From Deltaproteobacteria bacterium (GTDB lineage Bacteria > Myxococcota_A > Polyangia > GCA-2747355 > JADLHG01), in contig JADLHG010000054.1 in assembly GCA_020848905.1 (NCBI GenBank), forward strand, positions 1 through 64,000: a stretch of 64,000 nt of DNA, in the 5' to 3' direction. Of this stretch, positions 16,040 through 63,066 are shown one piece after another. Each line of letters starts with the position of its first letter. Position 1 is the stretch's first letter. The translations under genes and the position numbers were made by a program. The notes below the pieces were generated by a model that saw only the letters and a program-made list of their open reading frames with translations, ran no database searches and was not told where the DNA came from.

Positions 16040-16087
16040 CGTCAACTCTCCGGGGATAAGGGATGGGGTGGTGCGCGCCCGGCCTAA

Positions 16088-44010: not shown

Positions 44011-44061
44011 GGGCGTGCGCGCAGCCCGCGTAGGCCGCGGGAGCGCGGGCGGGCCGAGCCC

Positions 44062-45003: not shown

Positions 45004-45318
45004 GCCGTGCGCCGTTGCAAGGGCCAAACCGCAGGGCAGCGGAGTGCGAGCTCGAGTCCTTTCGGTAGGCTGCGCGTCGGTGGGGGCCGTGCTCCCCCTG
45101 CGGTGTGCTCCGAAAACGCGCGGAGGGTGTGAGATGCGCCGCCAGCCTACGCGGCCCCTCGGGACGTCGGGCGCCCGTCCTGGGAGGCTCCACCCCGATC
45201 GAGGCCCCAAGCCCCAGGGCGGTCCGCGATCCCGCACGCCTTTCCCTCGAAGGATCACCGCCGCGCGTGCCCGGCACGCAACCTGCTCACTGACGGGGTC
45301 CGAACGAGGAGGTGCCTT

Positions 45319-46080: not shown

Positions 46081-46121
46081 GGGCTCGCGCCCGAGGCTCG
46101 GGACTGCGCTATGCTGGGAAG

Positions 46122-47423
46122 GTGCGGCGTGGCCACGGGCATCGCGGGAGCTACGGAGCGTCGTTGGCGGCGGCCCTGGCGATCGTCGCGTGTGCCGGGT
46201 GCTCGCGCCTGGGATTCGACCGGACGCGTGGCGCGGCGGACGCCGGCGTGGCAGAGGACGGCCCGGGGTTCGTGACCGACGGATGGAGCCGGGATGGCCT
46301 GGCACTGCATGACGCGACGGCCGGGGCGCGCGACGGGGCGCGCGGGGATGGGGCGGCGGGCGACGGAGCCGGGACCGACGGGAGCCCCTACGGCGGCACG
46401 GCCTGGTGGGACGCGAGACATCCGTACCGCAAACTCCTCACGGTGCCCGCCGGCGCGGTCACCGCGGACCTCCTCGACTTCCCCGTGCTCGTCTCGCTCG
46501 CCGGAGATCCGGACCTTCGCGCGCAGGTCACGGGGCCGAACGATCTGCGCTTCGTCTCCGTGGATGGCGCGGTGGTCTACGAGCACGAGGTCGAGTCCTG
46601 GTCGGCGTCGAGCGGGGCGCTCGTGGCCTGGGTCAAGCTCCCTCGACTGGCCTCTGCTACGGGTGCGCGTTTCTACCTCTACTTCGGTCGCGCCGCGGCG
46701 CCGGCCCCACCCGCGGGCCGCTCCGTCTGGTCAGCGTATCGGCTCGTCTATCACCTCGCCGACCCGATGGGAGGGGCGGTGCGGAACGCCGCGTCCGAGA
46801 TCTTCGACGGGACGGCCACCGGGACCGTCAGCGTCGTGGGGCGCGTCGGGAGCGCGCGCCGCTTCACCAGTCTGGCCGACGGCGTGAGCGTCGCGGGGGC
46901 GAGCGCGCTGGTCTCGGGAGCTCCGCGCTTCAGCCTCTCCTTCTGGCTCTTTCCGGACTACGCAACAGACGGTGCCGTGAGCCCGGCCATGGAGCCGCGC
47001 GTGTTCGAGCAGCTCGGTCCGTGGACGGCGGGCCGGCTGATCCGGTTCGGCTCGACGCCGCCGGGGTGGTTCCTGCTGCAGGTCGACCTCGAGCTCGTGG
47101 GCGGGACCGAGTACGCGCAGGTGCCCGTGCGGCGGGCCGGCTGGACGCACGTGGCGCTCGTATTCGATGGAAACACCGTCCGGACCTATTCGGACGGACA
47201 GCTCGCGAACACCTACGCCGCGGCGGGTAAGCAGGTGCCGGTCGCTCGCGACGAGCACTTGACCCTCGGGCACACCACGTTCGGTCGGCCATCCTTCATC
47301 GGCAGCCTGGACGAGTTCCGTCTCACCCTCGACGCCCGCAGCAGCGCGTGGCTCTCGGCGGAACGCGCGAACGCGAGCGCGCCGCAGACTTTCGTCACGG
47401 TAGGAGCGCTCGAGCAAAAATAG
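46122..47423 (+). CDS. lipoprotein with DUF2341-like and LamG/concanavalin-like domains
   Basis: GTG start giving MRRGHGHRGSYGASLAAALAIVACAGCS (lipobox). Conserved YRKLLTV...LDFPVLVSL...DLRF...WVKLP...FYLYFG pattern, then a Laminin-G-like segment. Start assignment uncertain. Confidence 0.5.
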   Translation: MRRGHGHRGSYGASLAAALAIVACAGCSRLGFDRTRGAADAGVAEDGPGFVTDGWSRDGLALHDATAGARDGARGDGAAGDGAGTDGSPYGGTAWWDARHPYRKLLTVPAGAVTADLLDFPVLVSLAGDPDLRAQVTGPNDLRFVSVDGAVVYEHEVESWSASSGALVAWVKLPRLASATGARFYLYFGRAAAPAPPAGRSVWSAYRLVYHLADPMGGAVRNAASEIFDGTATGTVSVVGRVGSARRFTSLADGVSVAGASALVSGAPRFSLSFWLFPDYATDGAVSPAMEPRVFEQLGPWTAGRLIRFGSTPPGWFLLQVDLELVGGTEYAQVPVRRAGWTHVALVFDGNTVRTYSDGQLANTYAAAGKQVPVARDEHLTLGHTTFGRPSFIGSLDEFRLTLDARSSAWLSAERANASAPQTFVTVGALEQK

Positions 47424-47498
47424 GCTGCGACCCGAGCCTTCGAGCTGGCCCTCCGTGGAAGAGCGGCGTGCAACGCGCCGCGAAGGAGGGTCACCATC

Positions 47499-48728
47499 AT
47501 GCGATCGATTGCCAGCTCCACGCTGCTCTGCGCGCTGCTCCTGACCGGCTGCAGCGACGACTCGTCCGTCGGGTCTTCGGGTGGGGGCGACGCAGGCTCC
47601 GGCGGTGACCAGCGCGTCCGGCGCGAGGACCCGCTCGGGACCTCCGACGCCGGACCCTCACGGGACGGGGGGAGGGGGCGTGCGGACGCTCGCGGGAGGG
47701 CCCTCGACGGCGCCGCACCGGACGGTCGCGCGGCGGCCGGCGATGGCGCGCTTTCAACGGTCACCAACTCGGGCAAGACCTGCACGACGCCGAGCGCCTG
47801 TTCCGGCAGCGAGCAATGCACGAGCCTGCCCGACTGGACGGGAGGGCTCTGCCTCGGGCGCTGCCAGAAGGCGGGCGAGAGCTGCCCTACCGCGGGGCTT
47901 GGTCAGCTCTCGGCCTGCCTCTTCTCCGATGCGGCCGAGACCGACTGGCGCTGCGCGTACGTGTGCGAGCTGAACGGGCAGAAGTACGCCTGCCCCGAGC
48001 CCGCCACGCAGGACTGCGCCGCGTCCTCGCAAGCGGGGCTCAAGCTCTGCCGGCCGAAGGGTGGCGGGAGCTGCACGCCGAGCTGCACGGGCAAGCGCTG
48101 TGGCCCCGACGGCTGCGGCGGCACCTGCGCGCCGGGGTGCGGGAGCGCCGAGACCTGCCAGCCCGAGGGGACCTGCAAGGCGGGGACGGTGGGCGGTGAC
48201 CCGGCCGGGGTGGACCGCACGAGCTGCATGGGCGTCGCGTCGTCGAGCGGCTCGGTGCTCAGCGCCACGCCCAAGGTCACGAGCGGGACCGTGCTCACCG
48301 ATCCGAGCGGAGCGCTGCGCCTCGTGCTGCTCCCCGTGCCCCTCGCCACGGGGAGCCTGACGATAGGCCTCTATTTCTTCCCGATCGCGGGGCAGCTCAG
48401 CTATCCGCCGAACGGAGCCGTGGGGTGCGCCCTGCTGCGCAAGACGGCGAGCGGCTGGTCCACCGTCGACAAGACGCAGCTCTGCGAGCTCACCTTTTCG
48501 GTGCTCAAGCACGCCTCGGCGCCGAAGAGCTGCGACGGCACGCTAGCCGGCGTCTATCGCGGTATATTTACCGGTAATCAGGTTCTGGCCGGAACCTTCT
48601 ATCTGCCGTCCGACGTCGCGGCGAGCCAGATCAAGCAGCCCTCGTGTCGGCCCATGAACAGCATTTGCAAGCAGCATAGCGACTGCTGCAGTCAGTCCTG
48701 CTCTCCGGTGCTGGGGGTCTGTCAGTAG
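47499..48728 (+). CDS. Cys-rich secreted lipoprotein
   Basis: Lipobox LLTGCSDD. Gly/Asp-rich linker. About 30 Cys. GAAGGAGGG Shine-Dalgarno. Confidence 0.65.
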   Translation: MRSIASSTLLCALLLTGCSDDSSVGSSGGGDAGSGGDQRVRREDPLGTSDAGPSRDGGRGRADARGRALDGAAPDGRAAAGDGALSTVTNSGKTCTTPSACSGSEQCTSLPDWTGGLCLGRCQKAGESCPTAGLGQLSACLFSDAAETDWRCAYVCELNGQKYACPEPATQDCAASSQAGLKLCRPKGGGSCTPSCTGKRCGPDGCGGTCAPGCGSAETCQPEGTCKAGTVGGDPAGVDRTSCMGVASSSGSVLSATPKVTSGTVLTDPSGALRLVLLPVPLATGSLTIGLYFFPIAGQLSYPPNGAVGCALLRKTASGWSTVDKTQLCELTFSVLKHASAPKSCDGTLAGVYRGIFTGNQVLAGTFYLPSDVAASQIKQPSCRPMNSICKQHSDCCSQSCSPVLGVCQ

Positions 48729-48737
48729 CGGGCTAAC

Positions 48738-50468
48738 TCAGGGCTGCAGCTTCAGCACGTCCACGCGGTGGATGATCTCCTTGTTGGTGATCCAGAGCGC
48801 GTGGCGGACGGTCTTGCCCTCGCGACCGTAGTCCATCCAATTCTCCCCGCCGAACAGCCCGGAGGATGGAGCGCGCGAGGAGTCCCAGGTCAGGACCACC
48901 GGCCGCTCCTGGCTGGCGCCGATCGGCGCGATGAGATCCTCGATCCCGCTGCGGCTAATCGTCTGCGAGTAGCGGATCTCGCTCCACACGGACTTCGGGC
49001 TCCAGCGGTCGCCGGCGGTGTAGAAGTAGTAGTCGCGCTCCGCGACGTCCGCGGGCAGCGCCTCGTTCCGTCGCGCGGCCGACTGCACCGCCACCCGCAC
49101 GTCCCGGTCCTTGCGTCCCGCCGTCACGATCAGCTCGCCGATCACCCGGTCTCGGGTGTTGCGCGCCGTCGGGAGCGGCTCGAAGTAGCGCACGCCCCCC
49201 TTCTCGCGCATCCAGCCCACCTGCTGGCTGCCGCCGCGCTGCTTGTCCCAGAACGCCGCGACCTCGCCGTCGATCTTCTTCAGGCGCAGCGCGCCGCGCC
49301 CGAAGACGAAGGACATCCAGTGGCTCGGCGTCTTGAACTTGGCCCAGTACCCATCGAGCCCCTTGAGCGAATCCACGCGGACCGGCTGGCCCTGGTGGTC
49401 CACGAGCTCGGTGCGGCGGAAGAAATCGTCGGCGACCTGCCAGGCCGCCTCGGGCACGGTCTTGCGCTTGAGCGCACGCTTCTGGGTGCGCACCCAGGTG
49501 TTCCGCTCGTGGCGGGCCTGCACCGCGTTCTTCAGGCCCGGGCCGAAGACGGCCACGCTGTACTTGGCAATGCCACCATCGACGAGCAGCCGATGCTGCG
49601 CCCACTGTCCCTCGGGGAGCGGGTTGCCCTTGGCGTCCTTGCGTGACCGCCAGGAGACGGGCAGCGGTCGCTCGTTTTCGTTCGCGCGGTTGAACTCGGG
49701 CCGCTCGAGCGCCAGGGCCACCTCGGCGTCGGAGGGCGCGTAGGGGCTCCCCGCGCGCCCCTTTCGACCCTTCGCCGGGCGCAGCACGCGCCGCAGGACC
49801 TCGGGCAGTCCGGCGTCGACCGACTCGAGCATGCCGGAGGAGGGCGGAATCGAGTTGTAGACGCGTTCGCCGGTCTTCCAGTGGTAGGTGGCGGTCTCGA
49901 AGGCCGTGCGATAGAGCCCGTCCTCGGTGGTTTCCCACGACCGCGCCGGGTCGGGTCGCCGGTAGTCGCTGGCCTCGAGATTTAGCTGCTTGATCAGCGC
50001 CTCCCCGATCGACTGGTTGCGCAGCTGGACGGCCTCCGTCGTCGGCACGAACTGCGCGCGCCGGCCGCGGCCGAGGATCACGCCCAGTGGGCGCGCCTGC
50101 TCGAGGCTCGCCCCCCAGAGGACCTGCGTGCCGCCGGCGACGGACCGATAGTGCGCCTCGCCCGGCCCGAACATGGCGGCCAGGACGCCCGCGGGAGTGA
50201 CGCCCTTCGCGTAGTAGGGCTCGAGACCCGAGAGCCCGACAGTCAGCGGGTTCTTGGCCACCAGCCGCCCGTTCTCCTGCCGGTAGCCCGAGAACTGGGC
50301 CAGGTGATCGGCCACGAGATAGATGCGGCGCTCGGCGGTCTTGCCCGTGCGCCGGAGCTCCGTCCCGGCGGGGCCTTTGGGCTGGGCCGCCTGGGCGCTG
50401 CCGCCCGAGGCGAGCAGGGCCAGAAGGAACGCCTGAAACAACCTGGGTGCGTGTCGCGTAGGCCGCAT
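48738..50468 (-). CDS. secreted hypothetical protein (576 aa)
   Basis: Signal peptide LLALLASGGSAQA. AGGAGAA Shine-Dalgarno. Confidence 0.55.
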   Translation of the reverse strand: MRPTRHAPRLFQAFLLALLASGGSAQAAQPKGPAGTELRRTGKTAERRIYLVADHLAQFSGYRQENGRLVAKNPLTVGLSGLEPYYAKGVTPAGVLAAMFGPGEAHYRSVAGGTQVLWGASLEQARPLGVILGRGRRAQFVPTTEAVQLRNQSIGEALIKQLNLEASDYRRPDPARSWETTEDGLYRTAFETATYHWKTGERVYNSIPPSSGMLESVDAGLPEVLRRVLRPAKGRKGRAGSPYAPSDAEVALALERPEFNRANENERPLPVSWRSRKDAKGNPLPEGQWAQHRLLVDGGIAKYSVAVFGPGLKNAVQARHERNTWVRTQKRALKRKTVPEAAWQVADDFFRRTELVDHQGQPVRVDSLKGLDGYWAKFKTPSHWMSFVFGRGALRLKKIDGEVAAFWDKQRGGSQQVGWMREKGGVRYFEPLPTARNTRDRVIGELIVTAGRKDRDVRVAVQSAARRNEALPADVAERDYYFYTAGDRWSPKSVWSEIRYSQTISRSGIEDLIAPIGASQERPVVLTWDSSRAPSSGLFGGENWMDYGREGKTVRHALWITNKEIIHRVDVLKLQP

Positions 50469-50665
50469 GGTGTTCTCCTGGGCGGCGAGAGAGCACGGCT
50501 CGTGCCAAGCGACAGAAGCAAAAACGCGTTATGTCATAGTTGTTTGAGCGCTGTGCAGACAGACGTTGGCGGCCCCCGTCCCCTGCCCTCCTGGCCGCTC
50601 TCCTGGCCAGGGGCGCCCCTGCCAGGCTATGCTACGGGCCGAACCCGTACCTGGAGCGATTTCCG

Positions 50666-50860
50666 ATGCTGAAGAAGATGATCATCTCGCTGGCCGCCGG
50701 TCTGACCCTCAGCCTGGCTGCGATGCCGGCCGCCGACGCCTGCCCCTGCAAGGGGGACAAGAAGGCCGACTGCGCCTGCAAGGGCAAGGGCGCGAACGGC
50801 GCGTGTGAGTGCGCGAAGGGGGGCAAGGGGGCCAAGGGCGGCGCCGAGAAGGGCAAGTAG
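50666..50860 (+). CDS. small secreted Cys-rich peptide (CxC repeats, Lys/Gly-rich)
   Basis: 64 aa. Signal peptide MLKKMIISLAAGLTLSLAAMPAADA, then CPCKGDKKADCACKGKGANGACECAKGGKGAKGG. Confidence 0.45.
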   Translation: MLKKMIISLAAGLTLSLAAMPAADACPCKGDKKADCACKGKGANGACECAKGGKGAKGGAEKGK

Positions 50861-50982
50861 CGCCCCTCCGATTCTCGACGGGCCTGCCTGGCGAGGGGGA
50901 CCAAGCAGGGCCTGGCTGAGCACTCCTTTCCAAGCGATAAAACGCGATCTTAGCCGACCCGCGGGTTGGCCCTCGCCGTGCA

Positions 50983-51657
50983 ATGCGCCAGGGCGGGATG
51001 CAGCTCCGTCGCGCCATCGTGCTCGCGTTCGTGCTGGTCGGCTGGGCCGGCCCGGCGCTGGCTCGCCAGGTCGAGAACCTCGAGACACGCTACCCGCGTG
51101 GCGAGTCGATCGGCGTGGGCGCGGGCAAGGAGGTCTTCGCCGTGGTGGGGCGGCCGGAGCTCGCGCTCGTCGTGGCGCGCATGCACCCCTGGGCGCTCGA
51201 CCACTGGAAGCAGGAGCTACGGCTGCAGAAGGTCTTCGCGCGGCTCGGCTTCCCCGTGGTGGAGGTGCTGGAACTCGGGAAGAGCGGCGACGGCCGTCCG
51301 GCGATGGTCCAGCCCCGCTACGCGATGGGGACCAAGGACTACTGCGTGCGCGGAGGACGGCGTCTGGTCAGCGCGCGCACGGCGAGTGACTGGGCCCGAC
51401 TGCTCGAGCTCGGCGAGCGCCACGGGATCTGGCCGCAAGACCCGCAGGGGCTGCTCGGCTTCGACGGCTCGCTCGTGCTGGCCGACTTCGGCTACGGGCT
51501 GAACATCTGGGGACGCGGTTCCCCGGAGCGGGAGGCGGCGCTGCAGGAACTTCGTTCGTCGGGCTCCCAGCCGCCACGGATCGACGGAGGCCGTCCGTAC
51601 GTGCTCCAGCTCTACGGCCTCATGCTGGCGGACGTCACTCCGCCGGCTCCACGCTGA
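50983..51657 (+). CDS. secreted hypothetical protein with kinase-like motifs
   Basis: Signal peptide. IGVGAGKEVFAV ... HGIWPQDPQ ... LADFGYG. Confidence 0.45.
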   Translation: MRQGGMQLRRAIVLAFVLVGWAGPALARQVENLETRYPRGESIGVGAGKEVFAVVGRPELALVVARMHPWALDHWKQELRLQKVFARLGFPVVEVLELGKSGDGRPAMVQPRYAMGTKDYCVRGGRRLVSARTASDWARLLELGERHGIWPQDPQGLLGFDGSLVLADFGYGLNIWGRGSPEREAALQELRSSGSQPPRIDGGRPYVLQLYGLMLADVTPPAPR

Positions 51658-51672: not shown

Positions 51673-53256
51673 ATGCAGAAAGAACTTCTCCTCGGAGATG
51701 AGGCGGTGGCCCAGGCCGCGCTGCACGCGGGGATTGGCGGCGCCTTCGCCTACCCCGGTACTCCGGCCACGGAGATCTTCGAACACGTCGAGCGGGTCGT
51801 GCGCCGGCACGCGCTGCCCGTGGCTACCGTCTGGTCCACGAACGAGAAGGTGGCCTACGAAGAGGCCCTCGGCATGTCCTACGCGGGACGCCGCGCGCTG
51901 GTCTCGATGAAGCACGTCGGGCTGAACGTGGCCGCGGACCCGTTTCTCAACTCGGCCCTGAGCGGTGTGAACAGTGGATTGGTCCTGGCGGTGGCCGACG
52001 ACCCCGGCATGCACTCCTCGCAGAACGAGCAGGACAGTCGGGTCTACGGAGATTTCGCCCAGGTGCCGATCTTCGAGCCCGCCACGCAGCAAGAGGCCTA
52101 CGACCTGACGCTCAAGGCCTTCGCCGCGTCGGAGGCGCTCGGGCTGCCGGTGATGCTCCGTCTCGTGACGCGGCTCGCGCACAGCCGGGCCGGGGTCGCG
52201 CCGCACGGAGCGCCCGTCGAAGGCGCGGCGCTGCCGCAGCGACCGCTCCCCGACCCGAGCAACTGGACCCTCGTCCCGGCCAACGCGCGGCGGCGCTTCG
52301 CCGAGCTGACGCGCCTGCAGGCGCGTCTCGTGGCCGAGTCGGAGTGCGCGCCGGAAAACGAGCTCATCCTGGCGGGGCGGCGCGGGGTGATCGCCGCGGG
52401 GCACGCGGTGACCTACGTGCGCGAGGCGCTGGGTGGCGCGACCGATCGCTCGCTGCTCAAGGTCGGCCGCTACCCGCTCCCCGTGGCGCGGATCCGCGAG
52501 CTCGTGGACCACTGCGACGAGCTCCTCGTCGTCGAGGAGAGCTACCCCTTCATCGAGCGCCGGCTGACGGGGCTCCTCGGCCTGCCGGGGAAGGCCGTGC
52601 GCGGCAAGCTCACCGGGGACCTCCCCCCGACGGGCGAGCTGACTCCCGAGCTCGTGGCGCGAGCGCTCGGCCTCGAGACGCGCGCGACGGGTACGGCGCT
52701 TTCGGACCTCGCGAACCGCCCGCCCCAGCTCTGCCGGGGTTGTCCGCACGCCGACTCCTTCAAGGCCCTCGTCGAGGCGGTGGCCACCTTCGCGAACCCG
52801 CTCCTCTTCAGCGACATCGGCTGCTACACCCTCGGCGTGATGCCGCCGTATCGCGCGGTCCACGCCTGCGTGGACATGGGCGCCTCGATTGCCATGGCCC
52901 ACGGCGCGGCGCGGGCCGGGGCCTACCCCGTCCTCTGCACCATCGGCGATTCCACCTTCGGGCACTCCGGCATGACGGCGCTGCTGAGCGCGCTGCACGA
53001 TAACGCCGATTGCACGGTGCTCCTCCTCGATAACTCGGCCGTGGCCATGACCGGCGTGCAGCCGAGCCACACCACGGGGGAGCGACTCCTCGCCATCCTG
53101 CGCGGGCTCGGCGTTCCCGAGGCCCACTTGCACGTGATCGAGCCGCACCCGAAGCACCACGCGGAGAACGTGGCGCTGCTCAAGCAGGCCATCGCCCACC
53201 GCGGGCTGAGCGTGGTGGTGGCCGAGCGCGCCTGCATCCACCTGAAGACCCACTGA
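51673..53256 (+). CDS. indolepyruvate/2-oxoacid:ferredoxin oxidoreductase alpha-subunit-like (TPP-binding)
   Basis: N-terminus MQKELLLGDEAVAQAALHAGIGGAFAYPGTPATEI is typical of IorA-type enzymes. CRGCPH motif. GDSTFGHSG TPP-binding region. Confidence 0.75.
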   Translation: MQKELLLGDEAVAQAALHAGIGGAFAYPGTPATEIFEHVERVVRRHALPVATVWSTNEKVAYEEALGMSYAGRRALVSMKHVGLNVAADPFLNSALSGVNSGLVLAVADDPGMHSSQNEQDSRVYGDFAQVPIFEPATQQEAYDLTLKAFAASEALGLPVMLRLVTRLAHSRAGVAPHGAPVEGAALPQRPLPDPSNWTLVPANARRRFAELTRLQARLVAESECAPENELILAGRRGVIAAGHAVTYVREALGGATDRSLLKVGRYPLPVARIRELVDHCDELLVVEESYPFIERRLTGLLGLPGKAVRGKLTGDLPPTGELTPELVARALGLETRATGTALSDLANRPPQLCRGCPHADSFKALVEAVATFANPLLFSDIGCYTLGVMPPYRAVHACVDMGASIAMAHGAARAGAYPVLCTIGDSTFGHSGMTALLSALHDNADCTVLLLDNSAVAMTGVQPSHTTGERLLAILRGLGVPEAHLHVIEPHPKHHAENVALLKQAIAHRGLSVVVAERACIHLKTH

Positions 53257-53269
53257 GAGAGACGACGCC

Positions 53270-56248
53270 GTGGAGCACAACATCCTTCTCGCGGGCGTGG
53301 GGGGGCAGGGCATTCTCTCGATCGCGCAGGCCATCTCGGGGGCAGCGCTCCGGCGCGGGCTCGAGGTGCGCCAGGCCGAGCTGCACGGCATGAGCCAGCG
53401 CGGCGGCGTGGTGCAGGCGCACCTCCGCATCGCCGACCACGTGCTGCACAGCGACCTCATCCCCGCGGGGCGCGCCGACCTCCTCATCTCCGTCGAGCCG
53501 CTCGAGGCGCTGCGCTACGTGCACCTGCTCGCCGACGGGGCGTCGCTCGTCTCGAGCGTCAACGCCTTCGTCAACCTCACGGGCTATCCGGCCGTCGAGG
53601 GGCTGCTCGCGCGACTCGCGGCGCATCCGCGCCACGTGCTCATCGACGCCGAGCGCCTCGCGCGGGCGGCCGGCTCGGGGCGCGCGGCCAACGTCGTGCT
53701 CCTTGGCGCGGCCTCGCTCTTCGTCGAGCTCGCCGCGGACGAGCTCGAGGCGGCGGTGGCCGGGCTCTTCGCCGAAAAGGGGGGCGCGCTGGCTGAGGCC
53801 AACCGGCGGGCCTTTCGCTTCGGCCGCCACGCGGCGCGCACCTACCTCGACGGCGTGGCCCGCGGCGCGAGCTCGGCCGCGGTGCGCCACTTCATCGAGA
53901 CCCTCTCCCCCGAGCACCTCGCCGCGGCCGAGCGCCCCGACGAACCGGTCTTCCCCGTCGAGCCCTTCGAGGAGCGGCTCTCGGGGGCCGAGGAGCACGC
54001 GGTGGCCCTGTCGCTCAAGGCCGCGCTGGCGGAGGGCCGCACGCAGCTCTTCGAGCACGAGGTCTACACCATCGTGCAGCTCGTGGGGGCCATCGCGCCG
54101 CCCGAGCACCTCTTCGTCAGCCACCACGAGCTCCCCACCGACGAGGCGCTGGCGCAGCTCCCGGGCGACCAGGTGGTGCTGAAGGTCGTCTCTCCGGAGG
54201 TGGTGCACAAGAGCGACGCCGGCGGAGTCGTCTTCGTGCGCAAGGACGGCGACGTCGTACGCGCCGCGCTCGACCGACTCTTCGCGCGTCACGCCGAGGC
54301 GGACGTGAGGGGGGTGCTGATCGTCGAGCGCGTGCCCCAGGCTGCCGCGGGTCTCGGGAGCGAGCTCTTCGTCGGACTGCGGGCCACGCGCGAGTTCGGC
54401 CCCGTGCTCGCGGCGGGGCTCGGCGGGCTCGATACCGAGTACCTGGCGCAGAAGATGCGCCCCGGGCTGGCGGTGGCCAAGGCCCTGGCGAGCGAGGTCA
54501 CGGCCGAGGAGTTTCTGACCCTCTTTCAGCGGACGGCGGCCTACGAGCTGCTGGCGGGGCGCGTGCGCGGGCACGAGCGGTTGGTCGGCGACGGAGAGCT
54601 CGTGCGCTGCTTCCGCGCCTTCCTGCTCCTCGCCCGCCACTTCGCCACCGCGCGCGACGAGGGGCCGTCGCTCGTCGAGCTCGAGGTGAACCCCTTCGCC
54701 TTTCGCCACGCGCGGCTCGTACCGCTCGACGGGCGGGGACGCCTCGGGACCGCGGCGCGCGCCAAAACGCCCAGGCCGCGGCAGAAGCTCCGCGCGCTCC
54801 TCGAGCCCGGGCGCGTCGGAGTGATAGGCGTCTCGAGCTCCGCCGCGAGCTTCGGCCACATCATCCTCTCCAACGTGCAGCGGGCGGGTTTTCCGCGCGA
54901 GCGGCTCACGGTGATCAAGCCGGGGGTCACCGAGCTCGACGGCGTGGCCTGCGTACCGAGCCTGACGGCTCTCGAGGAGCCCGTCGATCTCCTGGTGGTC
55001 GCGGTGGGAGCCGAGCAGCTCCCGGCGATCGCGAAGGAGGTGGTGGAGAGCGGCAAGGTCCAGTCGGCGATTCTCATCCCGGGGGGGGCCGGCGAGACGA
55101 AGGGGAGCGAGGCGCTGGCCGAGGAGCTGCGGCGGATCGTGGCCTCAGGTCGCGCGCGTCCCGACGGGGGCCCGCTCTTCCTCGGGCCGAACAGCCTGGG
55201 GGTCGTCTCGCGCCCCGGCCGCTACGATACGTTCTTCGTGCCCGAGAGCCGCATGGACAAGCGCTTCGAGGCGCGGGCGCGTCCCGTCGCACTCGTCTCG
55301 CAGAGCGGGGCCTTCATCGTCAGCCGCCTGAGCAACCTGGAGACGCTCGACCCGGCCTTCGCCATCTCGATCGGCAACCAGCTCGACCTGACGCCGGCCG
55401 ACCTGCTCTCGGCTCTCGCGGAGCGCAGCGACGTGAAGGTCGTGGCGATCTACGCCGAGGGCTTCGGCGACGAAGAGGGGCTAGAGCTGGTGCGGGAGAT
55501 CGACGCCGCCACGCGGCGGGGCACGCAGGTGCTCTTCTACAAGGCCGGGCGCACGGCCGAGGGGCGCAGCGCGGCCGCGGGGCACACGGCGTCGGTGGCC
55601 GGCGACTACGACGTCTGCACCGCCGCCGCGACCGAAGCGGGGGCGCTCGTCACGGACACCTTTCGCGAGCTCGAGCAGCTCCTCGAGCTCTGCGCGTTCC
55701 TCTGTGACAAGCGGCCCGCGGGGACGGCGCTCGGTGCGATCTCGAACGCCGGCTTCGAGGCGGTGGGGATCGCCGACGCGCTCGTCGGACCGCGGTGGCA
55801 GCTCACCTTGCCCACGCTAGCGGCCGGGACGATGGAGGCGCTGCGCGCGGCCCTCGAGCTACACGGCCTGACGCGGCTCGTGACGCCCAGGAATCCGCTG
55901 GACCTCACCCCGATGGCCACCGACGCCGCGTACGAGGCGGCGGCGCGCGCCTTCCTCGCCGACCCCGGTCTCGACGCGCTGGTGGTCGGGATCGTGCCGC
56001 TCACGGCCACCCTGAAGAGCGTGCCCGGAGAGCTCGCCTCCGAGGAGAGTCTGGCCCGCCGCCTGCCCGCGCTGCTCGCCGGCTCGGACAAACCGCTCGT
56101 GGCGGTGGTGGACGCGGGGCCCCGCTACGAGCCGCTCGTCTCGGCGCTACGCGCGGGAGGCGTCCCGGTCTGTCGCTCGGCGGATCAGGCGATCCGTTCG
56201 GTGGGCCGCTACCTCACGCAGCATCAGACCGTCTGGAGCCGGCGCTGA
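53270..56248 (+). CDS. fusion of an IorB-like gamma/beta subunit with NDP-forming acyl-CoA synthetase domains (ATP-grasp plus CoA-binding/ligase-CoA)
   Basis: N-terminal about 190 aa MEHNILLAGVGGQGILS (pyruvate/ketoisovalerate-OR gamma-like). Middle ATP-grasp segment (VVLKVVSPEVVHKSDAGGVVF). C-terminal CoA-binding Rossmann segment (RVGVIGVSSS...PGGAGET). GTG start. Confidence 0.75.
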   Translation: MEHNILLAGVGGQGILSIAQAISGAALRRGLEVRQAELHGMSQRGGVVQAHLRIADHVLHSDLIPAGRADLLISVEPLEALRYVHLLADGASLVSSVNAFVNLTGYPAVEGLLARLAAHPRHVLIDAERLARAAGSGRAANVVLLGAASLFVELAADELEAAVAGLFAEKGGALAEANRRAFRFGRHAARTYLDGVARGASSAAVRHFIETLSPEHLAAAERPDEPVFPVEPFEERLSGAEEHAVALSLKAALAEGRTQLFEHEVYTIVQLVGAIAPPEHLFVSHHELPTDEALAQLPGDQVVLKVVSPEVVHKSDAGGVVFVRKDGDVVRAALDRLFARHAEADVRGVLIVERVPQAAAGLGSELFVGLRATREFGPVLAAGLGGLDTEYLAQKMRPGLAVAKALASEVTAEEFLTLFQRTAAYELLAGRVRGHERLVGDGELVRCFRAFLLLARHFATARDEGPSLVELEVNPFAFRHARLVPLDGRGRLGTAARAKTPRPRQKLRALLEPGRVGVIGVSSSAASFGHIILSNVQRAGFPRERLTVIKPGVTELDGVACVPSLTALEEPVDLLVVAVGAEQLPAIAKEVVESGKVQSAILIPGGAGETKGSEALAEELRRIVASGRARPDGGPLFLGPNSLGVVSRPGRYDTFFVPESRMDKRFEARARPVALVSQSGAFIVSRLSNLETLDPAFAISIGNQLDLTPADLLSALAERSDVKVVAIYAEGFGDEEGLELVREIDAATRRGTQVLFYKAGRTAEGRSAAAGHTASVAGDYDVCTAAATEAGALVTDTFRELEQLLELCAFLCDKRPAGTALGAISNAGFEAVGIADALVGPRWQLTLPTLAAGTMEALRAALELHGLTRLVTPRNPLDLTPMATDAAYEAAARAFLADPGLDALVVGIVPLTATLKSVPGELASEESLARRLPALLAGSDKPLVAVVDAGPRYEPLVSALRAGGVPVCRSADQAIRSVGRYLTQHQTVWSRR

Positions 56249-56371
56249 CCGCGCGCCTCGGCCTTCACAAGACGATCGGCTCGTTCCGTGCCGGGCCCTA
56301 CACGGTCGTTCACGCCGGTCGATGAAGGGTACGGTCCTCGTTTCGTCCGTTACCTCTCGAGGAGGCCGCCC

Positions 56372-56983
56372 GTGCACGTCGATCCGGACTTCTTGCCCCT
56401 CATCGTGGGATTCTCACCCGACGCGCTAGAACGCCAGGAGGGCGCGATCTACGGGCTGTGGGGTGATCTGCGCCTGGCCTACTTCAACGGCAGCTACGAA
56501 CGCTTCGCCGCGGCGAACGAGGGACGCCGGATGCTCGACGCCTGGCCGCTCGGTCGCTCGGTGCTGGACGCGGTGGCCGAGCCCCTCGTGTCCTTCTACC
56601 GCGAGCTCTTCGGGCAGACGCTCGTCTCGGGCCAGCCGCGCTCCCACGAGTACGAGTGTCCGAGCCCGACGCTGCGGCGGACCTTCCGCATGGACGTGTA
56701 CCCGGTGACGCGGAAGGAAGGCCTGCTCGTGGTGAACAGCCTCCTCGTCGAGGCGCCGCACGCCGGGGACGGAGAGCCGGCGGGTCCGCGCGAAACCTAC
56801 CGCACCGCGGACGGACTCATCGTGCAGTGCGCCCACTGCCGGCGCACCCGGCTCGGGCGAAACGACGACGTCTGGCACTGGGTCCCGGCCTTCGTGCGGA
56901 CCCCGCCCGAGGAGACGAGTCACGGGCTCTGCTACCCGTGTTTCGCCCACCACTACCCTGAGCCCGAGGAGGGCGACGCGTAG
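56372..56983 (+). CDS. hypothetical protein with C-terminal Cys/His cluster
   Basis: GTG start with GAGGAGG 5 nt upstream. CAHC...CYPC motif. Its 3' end overlaps the convergent methyltransferase gene by about 30 nt. Confidence 0.4.
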   Translation: MHVDPDFLPLIVGFSPDALERQEGAIYGLWGDLRLAYFNGSYERFAAANEGRRMLDAWPLGRSVLDAVAEPLVSFYRELFGQTLVSGQPRSHEYECPSPTLRRTFRMDVYPVTRKEGLLVVNSLLVEAPHAGDGEPAGPRETYRTADGLIVQCAHCRRTRLGRNDDVWHWVPAFVRTPPEETSHGLCYPCFAHHYPEPEEGDA

Positions 56984-58557
56984 GGCCTGAAGTCGCGCCC
57001 GAGCAGCGCGACGAGCGACGGGACCGGCACGCGTCCGAGCTCGCGCGGCTCGAGCTTCTGCAGGCCGCCGCCGTAGACGCGCCCCTCCCCTTGTAGCGCC
57101 TGTGGGTCGAGGGCGCGGAGCGCGCTCCAGAGCTCTCGACCGAGGCCGGGTCGGCGGGCGAGCTCCGCGGCCAGCGCGGGTCGGGGGTAGAGGAGCAGGT
57201 AGACGTTCGGCACCGTGGCGAGCGAATGGTTGAGCAAGAAGCGGAACGGTCGGCGCTCGCCGTGTCGCACGGCCGCGCCGCGGCCCATGTACGTGCACAC
57301 GATGGGGGCGGGGAGGCGCTGCTCTTGCGCGTACCAGGGGCGGCGGTGCCGGCAGAGGTAGCGTGACGCCGCGCGGGCCTTGCCCTCCTCGAGGTAGCGG
57401 TAGAGCGCGCGCGAACGGCGCCTCACCTCCTCGAGCGACCACGCGCAGTCGAGGAGCACGAGCCGCGGCGTGACGAGGGGTGCGCCCGTCGCGTCCGCGG
57501 CGATCTCGTCCAGCTCGCCGAGAAAGCGGGGGCCCGGCAGGATCGGGCGCAACACTTCCGGGGGCAGGCCCAGCGCGCGCGCGCGTTCCGCCTCCAGGAT
57601 GAAGTAGCGGTTGTCGCCCGTGGCGATTCCCCGACGGACCTCGAAGAGCTCCGCGAGCCGCGGGGTGTGGTCGGCGACGCTCGATCGAGGCGCCTGCCCG
57701 AGGCGCGGCCACTTGTCCGCGCGCGCGAGCTCCTCCGCCGACGCGTCCAGCCGCGCGGAGGGCCGGGCGAGCGAGTCCCCTTCGGTGAGCTCCACCCGAT
57801 GCCCCGCGCCCGGCGGCTCCTTGCGGTAGGCCAGCACGGCCGAGGTCACCAGCGCATCGCCGAACTGTTCTTCGTCCGGGCGGAAGCGATGCAGGCGGAG
57901 CAGCGTGACGCGCTCGGCCAGGTACCGCCTGAGCGGCGCCCCCCAGGCCACCTCGCAGACCTCCGCGGGCAGAAGCCACACGGCGACTCCGCCGTCGCGC
58001 AGCCATGGATCGGCCAGCCCCACGAAGTAGCCGTAGAGCCCCGCGAGCCCGCCGAGCCGCATCCCCGAGGCCGCCTCGCACCGTCGCCGGAGCCGCGTCT
58101 TGTCCGCTGCGGACAGGTGGTGGTGGCGCGAGTAGGGCGGGTTGCAGACGAGGAGGTTCGCGCGCTCGGCCTCTCGCGTCGGCGCGGTACGCCGCGTGAA
58201 GTCTCCCTGCACGAGCTCGAGCGCGCTCCGTCGCCACAGCCGTGCCGCGGGCCCGGCGTAGTGCGCGTCGCGCTCCACCCCGCGGGCCCAGGCGATGCGC
58301 GGCGGCTCGAGCTGCGCGCGCAGCGCCTCGTAGAAGGCCCCCGTGCCGAAGGCCGGGTCGAGAAAGCGCACGCGCGGCCCAGGCGGCAGCCACGCGAGCC
58401 CGAGTCGCACCACCTCGCGCGCCAGGCCGGGCGGCGTGGCGAACTGCCCGAGCCGGTTACGCTCGGTCGCGCTCTTACGCCCGTCGAGCTCGGCCTGCAG
58501 CGCGAGCCGTCCCCCGTCGACGCCGCTCCCCTCCCTTCTCGGCGTGCCTGTCCGCAT
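56953..58557 (-). CDS. Eco57I-family N6-adenine DNA methyltransferase
   Basis: FATPPGLAREVV, DPAFGTGAF (SAM motif I), NPPY (motif IV), and a C-terminal TaqI-C-like region. 534 aa. No adjacent nuclease or restriction partner recognised. Confidence 0.75.
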   Translation of the reverse strand: MRTGTPRREGSGVDGGRLALQAELDGRKSATERNRLGQFATPPGLAREVVRLGLAWLPPGPRVRFLDPAFGTGAFYEALRAQLEPPRIAWARGVERDAHYAGPAARLWRRSALELVQGDFTRRTAPTREAERANLLVCNPPYSRHHHLSAADKTRLRRRCEAASGMRLGGLAGLYGYFVGLADPWLRDGGVAVWLLPAEVCEVAWGAPLRRYLAERVTLLRLHRFRPDEEQFGDALVTSAVLAYRKEPPGAGHRVELTEGDSLARPSARLDASAEELARADKWPRLGQAPRSSVADHTPRLAELFEVRRGIATGDNRYFILEAERARALGLPPEVLRPILPGPRFLGELDEIAADATGAPLVTPRLVLLDCAWSLEEVRRRSRALYRYLEEGKARAASRYLCRHRRPWYAQEQRLPAPIVCTYMGRGAAVRHGERRPFRFLLNHSLATVPNVYLLLYPRPALAAELARRPGLGRELWSALRALDPQALQGEGRVYGGGLQKLEPRELGRVPVPSLVALLGRDFRPYASPSSGSG

Positions 58558-58613
58558 CGCCGCCCGACTCTAGGTGTTCGCCGCGAAATAACCAGCGCAT
58601 TCCGCGGTGGGCC

Positions 58614-59093
58614 CTACGTGCGAGCGCTCTTCACCTCTACCACGCGCAGCCTCGGCGTTCCGGCTGCGTCTTCGGGTGCGGCCCCCGCGGCCGCGAGCAA
58701 CGTTCCTTGATCGGTCTCGGCCTCGGGACGTCGGCGCCGGGACCGCGTCCCCGGCTGGGGGCTCGCCTCGCTCCGCGGCCCTCTATCGGAGGGGCGCAGC
58801 GCCAGGGCGGCCACCTTCTCGGCCAGGGCCGGGTCTCCCTCGGCGTACACCCGCGCGTAGGCCAGGGCGCGCGCGGCGTGCTGCTCGAGCGCGGCCTGCG
58901 CGGCGGCCACGGCTTCGGTCGCCGCGGCGAGATGCGTCTCGAGCTCGCGCTGCTCCCCGGTCGCTCGCTGCAGCGCCTCCTCGGCGCGCTGCAGGCTGGC
59001 CTGGCTCACGTCGGGGAAGGCGACGGCCGACAGCTCCTCGTCGAAGAGTGTCAGCACCCTTCGCACTCCCTTGGGGACGGGGTCTTCGAGCAT
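58614..59093 (-). CDS. hypothetical coiled-coil protein upstream of the methyltransferase
   Basis: 159 aa from ATG 59093, with GAGAGGG upstream. Ala/Glu-rich. Confidence 0.35.
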   Translation of the reverse strand: MLEDPVPKGVRRVLTLFDEELSAVAFPDVSQASLQRAEEALQRATGEQRELETHLAAATEAVAAAQAALEQHAARALAYARVYAEGDPALAEKVAALALRPSDRGPRSEASPQPGTRSRRRRPEAETDQGTLLAAAGAAPEDAAGTPRLRVVEVKSART

Positions 59094-59265
59094 CACGGGC
59101 CCTCTCGGTTGCGGCAACGAAACGGTCTTGGAGACTGCTTGTCCGTATCGTTATGAACAAGTGTTCAGTATCCGTCAAGCCCGCATTCGCGATCGAACGC
59201 AGGTTGCGTCGAGGCCGGCCGGGCTCCGGGGCAACGGGGCGGGCGGCCGGGCGGTCGATCCTGGC

Positions 59266-60432
59266 GTGCGGTGCATCCCTCGCGGTGCCGTCTGCCTGGC
59301 CGTGTCGATCGGAGCGCATGCTCTGGTGCTGCCGGTGCTCGCCTGGACCGACTGGAGCGCGCGCAGCGCGGTGGGATCTTCCGGCCGGTCGCTTTCCTCG
59401 GTGGTGGAGCTCGAGCGCGTTCCGGCGCAGACGGTACCGGGAGAGGTGCGCCCCGTCACGTCGCAGCGGCTCCCGACGCCGAGGCGCCCCGTCACGCGGC
59501 GGGGTCTCGACCTCCGGAGCCGCGTTTCCTCGGGCGCGCGCGGTGCGGGGCCACGCACGCGCGACCAGGTCGAGCCTGCCGGGGTTACGCCCTCCCCCGC
59601 CGAGGGTACGCCCGCCGCCCTCCCGGCTCCTTCCGGCCTGTTGCGGATGCGGTCGCGGCTCGAGCTCGCTCCGTCGCTCGAGGCGCTTGCCGAGCTGCCC
59701 CGTCGGGCCCACCCGGCGCAGGCCGATCCTCTGTCGGGCCGGAGCGCGTCCGGGTCGGCCACCTCGTCTGCCGCGACGCGCGCCGCGCTAGCCGAGCGGG
59801 TCAGGCGCCTCCTCGCGACGGATCTGGCGCAGCATCACGCGCGGTCCGGGCGCGTGTCGCCGCGCCTCTTCGAGGTAGCTCGTCGCGCGGACCAGCTCTT
59901 CACCGTCGACTGGGAGCTCGTCCGGGGAGATCGCGCGCACCTCGGGTCGATCAAGCGTGGGCTCGCCTCCTTCGTCTACGGCATCTGGGACGGCTGGCAG
60001 AAGGCGCTGGGCGCGCAGTCCAGGTCGCACCGCGAGGCCAGGGGTGCGGTCGAGGCGCCGCAGCGGCTCGAGGCCTACGCGGCGGCGGCGGAGGCCGCGG
60101 CCGAGCGCGCCGACGAGCTCCGGGCTACCTACTGCATCGAGACCGACGGGCGGGAGGTCCGGCTGACCCTGGCCTCGCGCTCCGGGCGGCGTCCCTTCGA
60201 CCGCATCGCCGAGCGGGCCCTGCGCACCGCGCTGCGGCTCGAACCGGAGGGGAGCCCCCCGCTGCCCGCTGCCTGCTATCGCTTCACGGCGCGCTTCCAC
60301 CGCGTGCCGCCGTTGCCGTACGTCGGCTGCAGCTTCGACGAGGTGCTGCTGAAGGCGGCCTGCTTCTACCCGTTGAAGCGGATCCTGCGGACGAACGTCG
60401 AGCTGGTGAGCGCAGCGCCGTCCACCGAATGA
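59266..60432 (+). CDS. hypothetical membrane-anchored protein
   Basis: GTG start chosen to avoid overlap with the divergent upstream gene. Single N-terminal TM (AVCLAVSIGAHALVLPVLAW), then Pro/Arg-rich linker. Start uncertain. Confidence 0.35.
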   Translation: MRCIPRGAVCLAVSIGAHALVLPVLAWTDWSARSAVGSSGRSLSSVVELERVPAQTVPGEVRPVTSQRLPTPRRPVTRRGLDLRSRVSSGARGAGPRTRDQVEPAGVTPSPAEGTPAALPAPSGLLRMRSRLELAPSLEALAELPRRAHPAQADPLSGRSASGSATSSAATRAALAERVRRLLATDLAQHHARSGRVSPRLFEVARRADQLFTVDWELVRGDRAHLGSIKRGLASFVYGIWDGWQKALGAQSRSHREARGAVEAPQRLEAYAAAAEAAAERADELRATYCIETDGREVRLTLASRSGRRPFDRIAERALRTALRLEPEGSPPLPAACYRFTARFHRVPPLPYVGCSFDEVLLKAACFYPLKRILRTNVELVSAAPSTE

Positions 60433-60464
60433 GCTCGGTCGGCATTCGCTCGGGTGGGATGAGG

Positions 60465-60556
60465 CGGAGAGAGAGGGATTCGAACCCTCGGTGGGGATTT
60501 AAAGGCCCCACACTCGCTTAGCAGGCGAGCACCTTCGGCCTCTCGGTCATCTCTCC
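60465..60556 (-). tRNA. tRNA-Ser (anticodon GCT)
   Basis: 92-nt minus-strand cloverleaf: acceptor GGAGAGA/TCTCTCC, anticodon loop CTGCTAA, long variable arm (TGGGG-CCTTTAAAT-CCCCA), T-arm GAGGG-TTCGAAT-CCCTC, discriminator G, then CC. Confidence 0.85.
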
Positions 60557-60673
60557 ATTCAAGTCCGGGGGCCCGTGCGCGCGGCCCGAAAACCTCTATC
60601 GCGCGAGCCAAACCCCCCGACATCTAGCCGACCCGGCCCCAAAAAACAAGACCTCACTCGGATCCGCCTTGCG

Positions 60674-62194
60674 TCAGTCCAGCTTGATCCGCGCGTAGTC
60701 GAGCGTCGTGCGCCGTTCGTGAATCTCGCGTCGCCCTGTCCGGCGCTCCACCTGCTGCCGCAGCTTGGGAAAGAAGCGGAGCAGGTCGTCGGCCCGGAGT
60801 ACCGCGGGCAACGGCTTCGTCTCCTCGGTCAGGACGACCCCCATCGAGGCCCCGGCGTCCAGGTTGCCGTGGAAGCCGTGCCGGGCCGACTCGTCCACCC
60901 CAGTGATCGTGCGAAACCCGCGCGAGGCGTACGGGCGCTTGAAGGCGAAGACGACGTCCGCGGGGTACTTGATGCCCACCGGCAGGAGCGCCGTGCGTGC
61001 CCGGTAGATGACGTCAGGGAACGGGCTCCGGGCGCCCGCGGAGTAGAGCGCCTCGTCCGTGACCTCGAGGTATTTCCTGCCGTCCGCGACATGCTCCCGG
61101 CCGGTCACGTTCTTGATCCCCAGCGCTGCGAGGTCGTGCCCCTCGGGCAGGTAGTAGGCGTTGGTCCCCGCGTGGTGCGCGCCGTGCAGCGGGCGCTTCC
61201 CCGCCACCCACACGCTGAACCACTGCAGCTCTCCTGCCGGATCGAACTCCCGATCGGGGCGCGAGCGCGACACGACCGCCTCGGCGTAGGGGCTCTGCGA
61301 GAGCCGCTCCGCGACGTCGTCGGCGAGCGCCAGCTCCGTGTGCAGTGAGACGTAGCTGACGGGGGTGTGCAGGATGGGGACCGCGTACGGGCCCGCCTCC
61401 CGTCGCCCCTCCGCGAAGGAGTCCACCACGCGCACCTGCGCTTGCTCCATGACGTGCCGGATGTCGATGAAGTCCCCCGGCGCGGCGGGCACGAAGTCCA
61501 TTCCGTGATCCGACACGAGCGTGAAGACGAACCGCTGCGCGGGGTGGTCGCGGCGAAACTTCTCGATACGACGCCAGAGCTCGAGGAAGGCGACCTTCAC
61601 GTGCGCAGCCGGCCGCATGTGGCCCATCACGTCGATGTCGAGGACGTAGCCCACGAAGACGGGGTTGTGTCGCACGCGCCCGCCCAGCACGTAGAAGAGG
61701 TTGTCGAGCGACTCCATCAGACTGAGCTCGAGCGAGCCGTAGCTCCACACGGCGTCGAAGTACCCATCTGCGTGGTAGTCGAAGACCTTCAGGTAAGGTG
61801 GCCCCTCCCAGGGGGTGCCGCGGAGCGGGGGGATGCCGTGCGAGATGAGACCCGTGTAGCCCACGTTCTGCAGCGCGTCCTTCTCCGGGTTGAAGTAGTG
61901 CAGCTCGTAGCCGTTCATGCGCTCGGTGCGCAGGATGCGGCTCCAGGCGATGTCGGAGGTGCTGGGGAAGGTGGAGACGAACTGCACCGCCTGCCAGCCC
62001 TGCGAGGGGATCTGCCCCGCGGCCATCGACTCGGTGACGGTCTTGAAGGCCAGGCCATCCACGGCCAGGTAGACGTGGACCACGGGGTTCTTCTTCGGGT
62101 CGCCGTCGACCGGAAGGCTGTTCATGAAGGCGTAGTGCTCCCAATCGCAGGCCCCGAGGAGCAGCAGGGCGCCCGCGAGCGCGACGCCGCGCAT
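60674..62194 (-). CDS. alkaline-phosphatase-superfamily lipoprotein (type I phosphodiesterase/nucleotide pyrophosphatase-like)
   Basis: Lipobox LLLGACD. Metal-ligand-like DxH and HG motifs (VSDHGMDF). GGAGGCG Shine-Dalgarno. Start is 15 nt after the OMP stop. Confidence 0.6.
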   Translation of the reverse strand: MRGVALAGALLLLGACDWEHYAFMNSLPVDGDPKKNPVVHVYLAVDGLAFKTVTESMAAGQIPSQGWQAVQFVSTFPSTSDIAWSRILRTERMNGYELHYFNPEKDALQNVGYTGLISHGIPPLRGTPWEGPPYLKVFDYHADGYFDAVWSYGSLELSLMESLDNLFYVLGGRVRHNPVFVGYVLDIDVMGHMRPAAHVKVAFLELWRRIEKFRRDHPAQRFVFTLVSDHGMDFVPAAPGDFIDIRHVMEQAQVRVVDSFAEGRREAGPYAVPILHTPVSYVSLHTELALADDVAERLSQSPYAEAVVSRSRPDREFDPAGELQWFSVWVAGKRPLHGAHHAGTNAYYLPEGHDLAALGIKNVTGREHVADGRKYLEVTDEALYSAGARSPFPDVIYRARTALLPVGIKYPADVVFAFKRPYASRGFRTITGVDESARHGFHGNLDAGASMGVVLTEETKPLPAVLRADDLLRFFPKLRQQVERRTGRREIHERRTTLDYARIKLD

Positions 62195-62208
62195 CTTCGC
62201 CTCCGCGG

Positions 62209-62976: not shown

Positions 62977-63066
62977 GGGATCGCGGGCGAGCCGCTTCGT
63001 CTCCTGGCGAGCGGGACCGACAGAGCATGATAGGGAGAAAGCCTCGCACCGCAAGGGCCAACTACC

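Follow-up and report, generated by a model that had tools for sequence, protein, structure and literature searches.

Why should a bacterium carry one subunit of an indolepyruvate:ferredoxin oxidoreductase (IOR) and an entire ADP-forming acyl-CoA synthetase (ACD) on a single polypeptide, and is such a polypeptide genuine? The question was raised by two adjacent genes, iorA and iorB-acd, in a 64,000-nucleotide stretch of DNA, hereafter the window, from a Deltaproteobacteria bacterium (contig JADLHG010000054.1, positions 1 to 64,000, assembly GCA_020848905.1). An earlier sequence-only reading had described the alpha subunit of a 2-oxoacid:ferredoxin oxidoreductase (OFOR), IorA, followed by an IorB-like subunit fused to an ADP-forming acyl-CoA synthetase, and the domain order returned by Pfam and NCBIfam agrees with that description. 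Our analysis indicated that the fusion is, as judged from sequence, real and under selection, and that the two genes probably, although by no means certainly, encode a bifunctional complex in which arylpyruvate is converted to arylacetyl-CoA and then to arylacetate with the formation of ATP and the recycling of CoA.

Architecture of the fused protein

The fused gene occupies 53270..56248 on the forward strand, starting 13 nt past the iorA stop codon in a region of about 72% GC content, and the predicted 992-aa product with its GTG start was confirmed as an open reading frame (ORF) that ends with TGA at 56246-56248. The N-terminus of the protein (MEHNILLAGVGGQG) fits the family consensus MxQNxILAGVGGQG and opens the IorB module (53270..53845; aa 1-192), which corresponds to the gamma domain (domain III) of OFORs. 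This module matched PF01558 (POR/gamma) over aa 11-186 (6.7e-29) and the IorB equivalog NF005324 over aa 1-192 with 244.3 bits, above the curated NCBIfam cutoff of 222; the gamma module is present but fused, and hence is not the stand-alone protein of the IorB definition. Its loop G9-V-G-G-Q-G14 was invariant in 43 diverse family members, the set on which invariance of residues in the fused protein was judged throughout, and represents a putative CoA-binding P-loop.

A conserved linker of 60 aa (53846..54025; aa 193-252) joins this module to the ACD half. Here, the ATP-grasp part formed by subdomains 3-4 (54026..54736, aa 253-489; PF13549 ATP-grasp_5 over aa 252-489, 4.5e-26) is followed by the Rossmann-type CoA-binding subdomain 1 (54815..55144, aa 516-625; PF13380 CoA_binding_2, 1.5e-14), subdomain 2 (55283..55690, aa 672-807; PF13607 Succ_CoA_lig, 9.2e-32), and the CoA-ligase subdomain 5 (55712..56224, approximately aa 815-985). 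All five ACD subdomains are present on one chain in the beta-then-alpha order [3-4-1-2-5]. Subdomain 5 was aligned to the C-terminal parts of the solved structures 9y43 and 4xyl_A, reaching residues 684 and 431, respectively, and was modeled by AlphaFold2 (AF2) with a predicted local distance difference test (pLDDT) score of 83-95. All Pfam matches in IorA and in the fused protein were well over the gathering thresholds, and a domain profile check of the 992-aa product recovered IorB, ATP-grasp, CoA-binding, and ligase-CoA domains alike.

Authenticity of the fusion and its linker

A frameshift or assembly join at about 53.8 kb had been considered as a source of the long reading frame, and no such artefact was found. 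When the 992-codon ORF was cut into 50-codon blocks, the GC content at third codon positions (GC3) was 0.90-1.00 in each of them, with values of 0.94, 0.98, and 1.00 across aa 151-300; since GC3 is continuous there, the reading frame is unchanged at the junction. At least 120 independent full-length homologues (913-1062 aa, 56-65% identity) share the same four Pfam domains, originating from Acidobacteriota, Thermoanaerobaculia, Myxococcota/Deltaproteobacteria, and Planctomycetota (Phycisphaerae) and drawn from JGI, ENA, NCBI, and Logan assemblies. An identical protein (P0001), from a Deltaproteobacteria metagenome-assembled genome (MAG), is present in NCBI.

In an alignment of 120 members, the linker (aa 193-252) was gap-free and as conserved as the catalytic domains, with a top-residue frequency of 0.71-0.83. 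In the AF2 model, predicted helices extend as far as about aa 218; the next stretch, aa 219-238, is a coil of low confidence (pLDDT 41-55 for aa 221-240), and a helix at aa 239-254 then runs into the ATP-grasp domain. The coil carries the motif E221-x-P-x-x-P-x-F228 in 98 of the 120 main-clade members, and this motif was found neither in unfused relatives nor in other fused lineages. The conservation of this motif inside a segment that is predicted to be disordered suggests a docking element. Some IorB proteins that are encoded beside an ACD but not fused to it have a C-terminal extension similar to the first half of the linker (L007; also L006 and L009).

Catalytic residues of the synthetase half

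Invariant residues in the ACD half comprise K305, H313-K314, E470/E472/N474-P475, D487, S677-Q-S-G680, E730-G-F, and G771-H772-T773. In the ATP-grasp part these include K305, the first catalytic histidine H313 (codon 54206-54208), and the ELEVNPF motif (E470-F476), whereas subdomain 2 contributes S679-G680, E730 (within YAEGF), and the phosphohistidine swinging loop with H772 (codon 55583-55585). The doubt raised earlier, that the C-terminal part might lack catalytic histidines or ATP-grasp residues, was dispelled by the presence and invariance of H313, H772, and the ATP-grasp residues.

The best match among solved structures was Nmar_1309, the 3-hydroxypropionyl-CoA synthetase of Nitrosopumilus (PDB 9y43; E 1.5e-51, query aa 263-969), followed by 8wzu, ckcACD1 (4xyl A and B), and DddX. 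Counting residues along the alignments pairs H772 with H503 of Nmar_1309 and H254alpha of ckcACD1, H313 with H69 of Nmar_1309 and H68beta of ckcACD1 (4xyl_B), and E730 with E462 of Nmar_1309. In Nmar_1309, H69, H503, and E462 have been assigned to a two-histidine phosphoryl relay and its stabilization; the enzyme has the subdomain order [3-4-1-2-5] and is an obligate homodimer whose active site is composed of subdomains 1 and 2 of one chain and subdomain 5 of the other (bioRxiv 10.1101/2025.09.22.677778). The catalytic machinery of both fused halves is intact. The NCBIfam ACD equivalogs for acetate, 3-hydroxypropionate, and 4-hydroxybutyrate scored about 200 bits against cutoffs of 567-1300, so far under these cutoffs that the ACD half is placed outside those specificities. 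The AF2 monomer model built on the family alignment had a mean pLDDT of 81.7 and a predicted TM-score of 0.68; the ACD subdomain regions were confident, and the pLDDT below 50 of the swinging loop (aa 762-771) is consistent with a mobile element.

The order [3-4-1-2-5] has been called unique for Nmar_1309 (bioRxiv 10.1101/2025.09.22.677778), and we observed it commonly in bacteria (P0123-P0270; L005-L012). Single-chain proteins of 730-800 aa that align in this order make up the majority of the 150 best representatives at 50% identity.

The IorA subunit

The iorA gene (51673..53256, forward strand; ATG start) encodes 527 aa with the Pfam domains POR_N and TPP_enzyme_C, corresponding to OFOR domains I, II, and VI. 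Among 27 IorA sequences, the thiamine pyrophosphate (TPP)-binding motif GDS...N (G425-D426-S427...N454) and four cysteines, C354, C357, C384, and C521, are invariant. From sequence, these cysteines are the predicted ligands of a single proximal [4Fe-4S] cluster, and IorA is intact. The NCBIfam model TIGR03336 (IOR_alpha) matched IorA with 470.8 bits over model positions 2-534 of 595, below its cutoff of 650.9, and a ferredoxin-type dicluster domain is absent, the match stopping before the C-terminus of the model. The archaeal IorA proteins have a greater length and include a ferredoxin-type dicluster domain, in agreement with the 595-position model, whereas our IorA would hold one cluster only.

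The low score mirrors a bacterial subtype rather than a defect, since the same short IorA occurs beside ordinary unfused iorB in Bacteroidales and others. Compared with its counterparts at ordinary iorAB loci, our IorA shows 41-57% identity and keeps all the cofactor motifs, and the CxxCxxCxxxC motif is missing in IorA beside unfused iorB in Bacteroidales, Chlorobiaceae, Ignavibacteriae, and others. A short IorA without a ferredoxin domain was also considered as a hallmark of the fusion system and was rejected, as IorA proteins at unfused iorB loci are mostly 530-545 aa. A sequence search of the PDB found no solved IOR structure for mapping IorA-IorB contacts.

Relatives, gene order, and origins of the fusion

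Eight family loci include upstream sequence, seven from the main clade (L001-L004, L087-L089) and one from the P0152 lineage (L084), and in each of them a short IorA gene lies directly upstream of the fused gene. The remaining neighbors differ from locus to locus, and none of them is conserved. The initial assumption that genome matches covering the full query are all fusions was rejected by ORF parsing and BLAST, which resolved most of them into three adjacent genes; in the tblastn scan of species-level genomes, only L003 and L004 were fused among these matches. Unfused iorA-iorB-acd operons were found in Vicinamibacterales, Myxococcales, Bdellovibrionota, Anaeromyxobacteraceae, Aminicenantes, Spirochaetes, and Bacteriovoracaceae, with seven loci, from these groups other than Aminicenantes and from one unclassified MAG, showing a gene break at the position of our linker. 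Where the genes are unfused, IorB covers query aa 1-190 (extending to 227 in L007), and the alignment of the 723-784-aa ACD begins at aa 245-260; because these alignment ends flank it, the gene break sits exactly in the linker. The iorB and acd genes share the same frame in L005 and L006, where they are 6 and 69 nt apart, respectively.

The unfused bacterial operons (L005-L012) contain the same three modules in the same order as our locus, with the ACD already a single beta-then-alpha chain and with some IorB proteins already extended at the C-terminus by the segment that makes up the linker's first half. The identities to our protein are 29-42% for ACD and 40-51% for IorB. These operons differ in the stop and restart between IorB and ACD, and in the absence of the coil motif.

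In an exhaustive search of 50%-identity representatives, fused clusters were few among many unfused 730-800-aa ACDs of the same order, comprising P0121 and P0122 (main clade), P0148 (951 aa), P0152 (941 aa), and fragments. The sequence-only reading had held that IOR and ACD are usually separate polypeptides, and both the three-gene operons and the rarity of fused clusters bear this out; a survey of related genomes, which it had proposed, showed a fusion that recurs yet is in the minority beside unfused relatives. P0148 and P0152 are 36-37% identical to our protein, with linkers of about 44 and 16 aa. On a crude neighbor-joining tree of the ACD part, which is only indicative, the three fused lineages fall at three different places. 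These separate positions, together with the differing linker lengths, suggest at least three independent fusions.

Several observations concern the wider gene neighborhoods. In an Aminicenantes MAG (L014, 6001-8927), the ACD following iorB was spread over three frames in tblastn, reflecting either long-read indels or a decaying gene. Loci of Flavobacteriaceae (L077, L015, L037, L054) have iorA-iorB close to, and 17 to about 1300 nt away from, the gene for an ACD whose domains follow the opposite order, alpha before beta, and IOR is therefore paired with both ACD architectures. One of these loci, L077 (4306-9980), belongs to a cultured isolate, Lutimonas saemankumensis DP2N0-7, and offers a tractable unfused counterpart. 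A class I/II aminotransferase is encoded two genes upstream of iorA at the P0152 locus; near the module, such a gene was seen only in that lineage and, 6-7 kb off, in L089. The latter locus also carries, 3-7 kb downstream (14228-18609, a span that includes the aminotransferase), a second two-subunit OFOR with fused POR and POR_N and a TPP_enzyme_C subunit. A cluster of cytochrome b (Ni_hydr_CYTB) and multihaem cytochrome c genes adjoins iorA/iorB-acd in two of the seven annotated main-clade loci, which include the window, L001, L002, and L087-L089; the clusters span L001 3786-6772 and L088 11238-18689. These cytochromes could point to respiration as the sink for electrons from the reduced acceptor, or their presence could be coincidence.

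Proposed function and direction

The observed architecture, intact catalytic residues, conservation, recurrent fusion, and operon ancestry provide the basis on which a function may be proposed. The products of the two genes would form one complex, most simply (IorA)2(IorB-ACD)2, in which IorA and the IorB module constitute a bacterial-type, single-cluster OFOR of the indolepyruvate family. Aryl, possibly other bulky, 2-oxoacids would be oxidatively decarboxylated with CoA to acyl-CoA, and the electrons would be passed to an external ferredoxin-type acceptor. The ACD, tethered at the C-terminus of the OFOR module that would hold the nucleotide end of CoA, would then use inorganic phosphate (Pi) and ADP to release the free acid and CoA from acyl-CoA and to make ATP, with an acyl-phosphate as intermediate and the phosphoryl group relayed by H772 on the swinging loop and then by H313 in the ATP-grasp site. 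The net reaction would be arylpyruvate + ADP + Pi + 2 Fd(ox) -> arylacetate + CO2 + ATP + 2 Fd(red), where Fd is ferredoxin, and CoA would be recycled locally.

Four lines of published work, taken together, lead to this single-complex proposal. In Thermococcales, transamination yields 2-oxoacids that are converted to acyl-CoA by OFORs including IOR, and then by NDP-forming synthetases with substrate-level phosphorylation (PMC9986279). In Clostridia, IOR- and VOR-cluster genes often adjoin ADP-forming ligases (PF13607), and a C. difficile ligase beside a VOR-cluster homologue (Cd3c) acts on phenylacetate, hydroxyphenylacetate, and indoleacetate (PMC13285125). The P-loop of OFOR domain III (gamma) binds CoA (PMC8091585). 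OFORs that have a single cluster and lack a ferredoxin domain of their own rely on external ferredoxin (PMC5020499).

Several points weigh against the proposed function, in which substrate class, direction, quaternary structure, and any channelling go beyond what the sequences display. The function of every family member is assigned by sequence comparison, and aryl specificity is a family-level guess, with IorA being under the TIGR03336 cutoff. The closest solved ACD homologue, Nmar_1309, runs physiologically from acid to acyl-CoA, and ACD reactions are reversible. No conserved ferredoxin, aminotransferase, transporter, or regulator was found beside the main-clade module. Furthermore, OFOR domain III is located at the outer 'wings' of the dimer (PMC5020499), and how the tethered ACD halves would meet to form an obligate ACD dimer is hard to picture.

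Among the rival readings, the strongest is the same complex run in reverse, which we regard as a real though distinctly less probable alternative. The ACD would activate arylacetates or other acids to the CoA thioester, spending no more than the conversion of ATP to ADP, and IOR would reductively carboxylate the product to a 2-oxoacid for amino-acid synthesis or salvage. In its favor, Nmar_1309, the closest solved homologue of the same subdomain order, forms CoA esters in vivo, IORs are anabolic in methanogens, and a biosynthetic role has been put forward for Bacteroides IOR, which is partnered by an AMP-forming arylacetate-CoA ligase (PMC13285125). The aminotransferase neighbor in the P0152 lineage is compatible with either direction. 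However, reductive carboxylation requires low-potential reduced ferredoxin, and ADP-forming ligases beside IOR/VOR-type genes have been treated as an ATP-yielding alternative to Pta/Ack (PMC13285125, PMC9986279). The carriers also include putatively predatory or proteolytic lineages (Myxococcota, and Bdellovibrionota for the unfused operon), for which, judging from lifestyle, amino-acid catabolism would be more natural.

As for the arylacetate-forming complex, it is a reasonable proposal that the fusion channels the CoA thioester into ATP formation by substrate-level phosphorylation, or operates the other way round. A bolder version, which we consider unlikely, holds that one CoA stays bound and its thiol swings between the TPP and ACD sites as a quasi-prosthetic arm, amounting to true channelling, within a closed ring or filament of alternating IOR and ACD dimers. 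The E-x-P-x-x-P-x-F coil would dock in this assembly, and the three or more fusions would reflect selection for it. The ring or filament was conceived because ACD needs homodimerization while the OFOR gamma domains lie at opposite tips of the OFOR dimer.

It is also improbable, in our estimate somewhat more so than the closed assembly, that the OFOR half is not aryl-specific and accepts other 2-oxoacids (branched-chain, methionine-derived, or non-proteinogenic), so that the label 'indolepyruvate' would mislead. The sub-cutoff IOR_alpha score of IorA fits this view, as does the diversification of the ACD superfamily to 3-hydroxypropionate, 4-hydroxybutyrate, dimethylsulfoniopropionate (DMSP), and ferulate; one fused family member has been automatically named feruloyl-CoA synthase. 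Nevertheless, the IorB module passes its equivalog cutoff, IorA retains substantial identity to the ordinary iorAB-locus proteins with complete cofactor motifs, and the fusion of alpha and beta in IorA is the organization of the IOR cluster (PMC13285125).

A non-catalytic role of the ACD-like part, as a regulatory or CoA-sensing appendage like that of the protein acetyltransferase Pat, is very improbable. Pat-type proteins (9it0, 9isq) are indeed among the structural homologues, indicating that the fold has non-synthetase uses, but both histidines, E730, K305, SQSG, and ELEVNPF are invariant and aligned to catalytic residues of active enzymes, no subdomain is missing, and the unfused orthologues are stand-alone ACDs. 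Finally, a sequencing or assembly artefact joining neighboring genes is effectively refuted: only a stop codon and 6-69 nt separate the in-frame genes of L005 and L006, and a single error could fuse or split such a pair, but the independent fused proteins come from many samples and several sequencing centers, two further fused lineages are known, the linker is gap-free and conserved with its own motif, and the GC3 signal is unbroken.

Comparison with known systems and implications

The IOR and ACS II (an acyl-CoA synthetase) of Pyrococcus and Thermococcus represent the same two families acting in sequence, from 2-oxoacid to acyl-CoA to acid plus ATP (PMC9986279). They are, however, separate complexes, with ACS an alpha2beta2 heterotetramer of alpha (1,2,5) and beta (3,4) subunits, whereas our IorB is joined to a single-chain [3-4-1-2-5] ACD, a half that is unlike the classical archaeal alpha/beta ACS in order. 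Nmar_1309 (9y43) shares this order and the equivalents of H69, H503, and E462 with our ACD, but is a stand-alone homodimer without an OFOR module that acts on a small hydroxy acid and forms the CoA ester within a CO2-fixation cycle. A precedent for our IorA is provided by StOFOR of Sulfolobus tokodaii, a two-subunit enzyme that has a single [4Fe-4S] cluster, lacks an intramolecular ferredoxin domain, and uses external ferredoxin; it differs in that its gamma domain is fused to the alpha subunit rather than to a downstream enzyme, and in its broad specificity for pyruvate and 2-oxoglutarate (PMC5020499).

The chemistry, both enzyme families, their sequential use, and the gene neighborhood are already known, and the covalent fusion is apparently undescribed: no published description of an IorB-ACD fusion was found in the literature searched, which covered few subscription-journal papers, and this absence is not proof. 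We rate the finding as a recurrent Rosetta-stone fusion, useful and tidy and not very surprising to a specialist. The fused proteins are named 'indolepyruvate oxidoreductase subunit beta' in databases, with the ACD two-thirds ignored, leaving an annotation gap of hundreds of proteins of about 1000 aa whose name hides an entire ATP-forming enzyme. As a natural 'Rosetta stone', the fusion suggests that bacterial IOR-type oxidoreductases hand acyl-CoA to, or take substrate from, ADP-forming acyl-CoA synthetases directly, and it would extend an energy-conserving route of hyperthermophilic archaea and Clostridia to Acidobacteriota, Myxococcota, and Planctomycetota. Such a compact two-gene module could turn aromatic 2-oxoacids into arylacetates, such as phenylacetate and indole-3-acetate, with a gain of ATP, a capacity that bears on pathway engineering and on the formation of auxin and phenylacetate in soils. 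The complex would also be a good specimen for structural study of acyl-CoA release by OFORs.

Surroundings of the module in the window

The large ORFs flanking the module (44000-51657 and 56288-63061) yielded nearly no Pfam or NCBIfam matches, with the exception of a 703-aa Laminin_G_3 and DUF2341 protein at 45312-47423. A promoter and terminator scan of 50.4-57.2 kb found nothing and is uninformative at 72% GC. Immediately downstream, a 534-aa ORF on the reverse strand (56953-58557) contains an NPPY motif (LLVCNPPYSRHH) and has a weak PrmC-type methyltransferase match (E 5e-5) and no Pfam match; it may encode a divergent N6-adenine/glutamine methyltransferase-like protein. Upstream, a small forward-strand ORF (50540-50860; 106 aa as listed), for which no family match was found, combines a hydrophobic signal-like segment with a Cys/Lys/Gly-rich tail (CPCKGDKKADCACKGKGANGACECAKGGKGAKGG), and its product may be a secreted metal-binding peptide.

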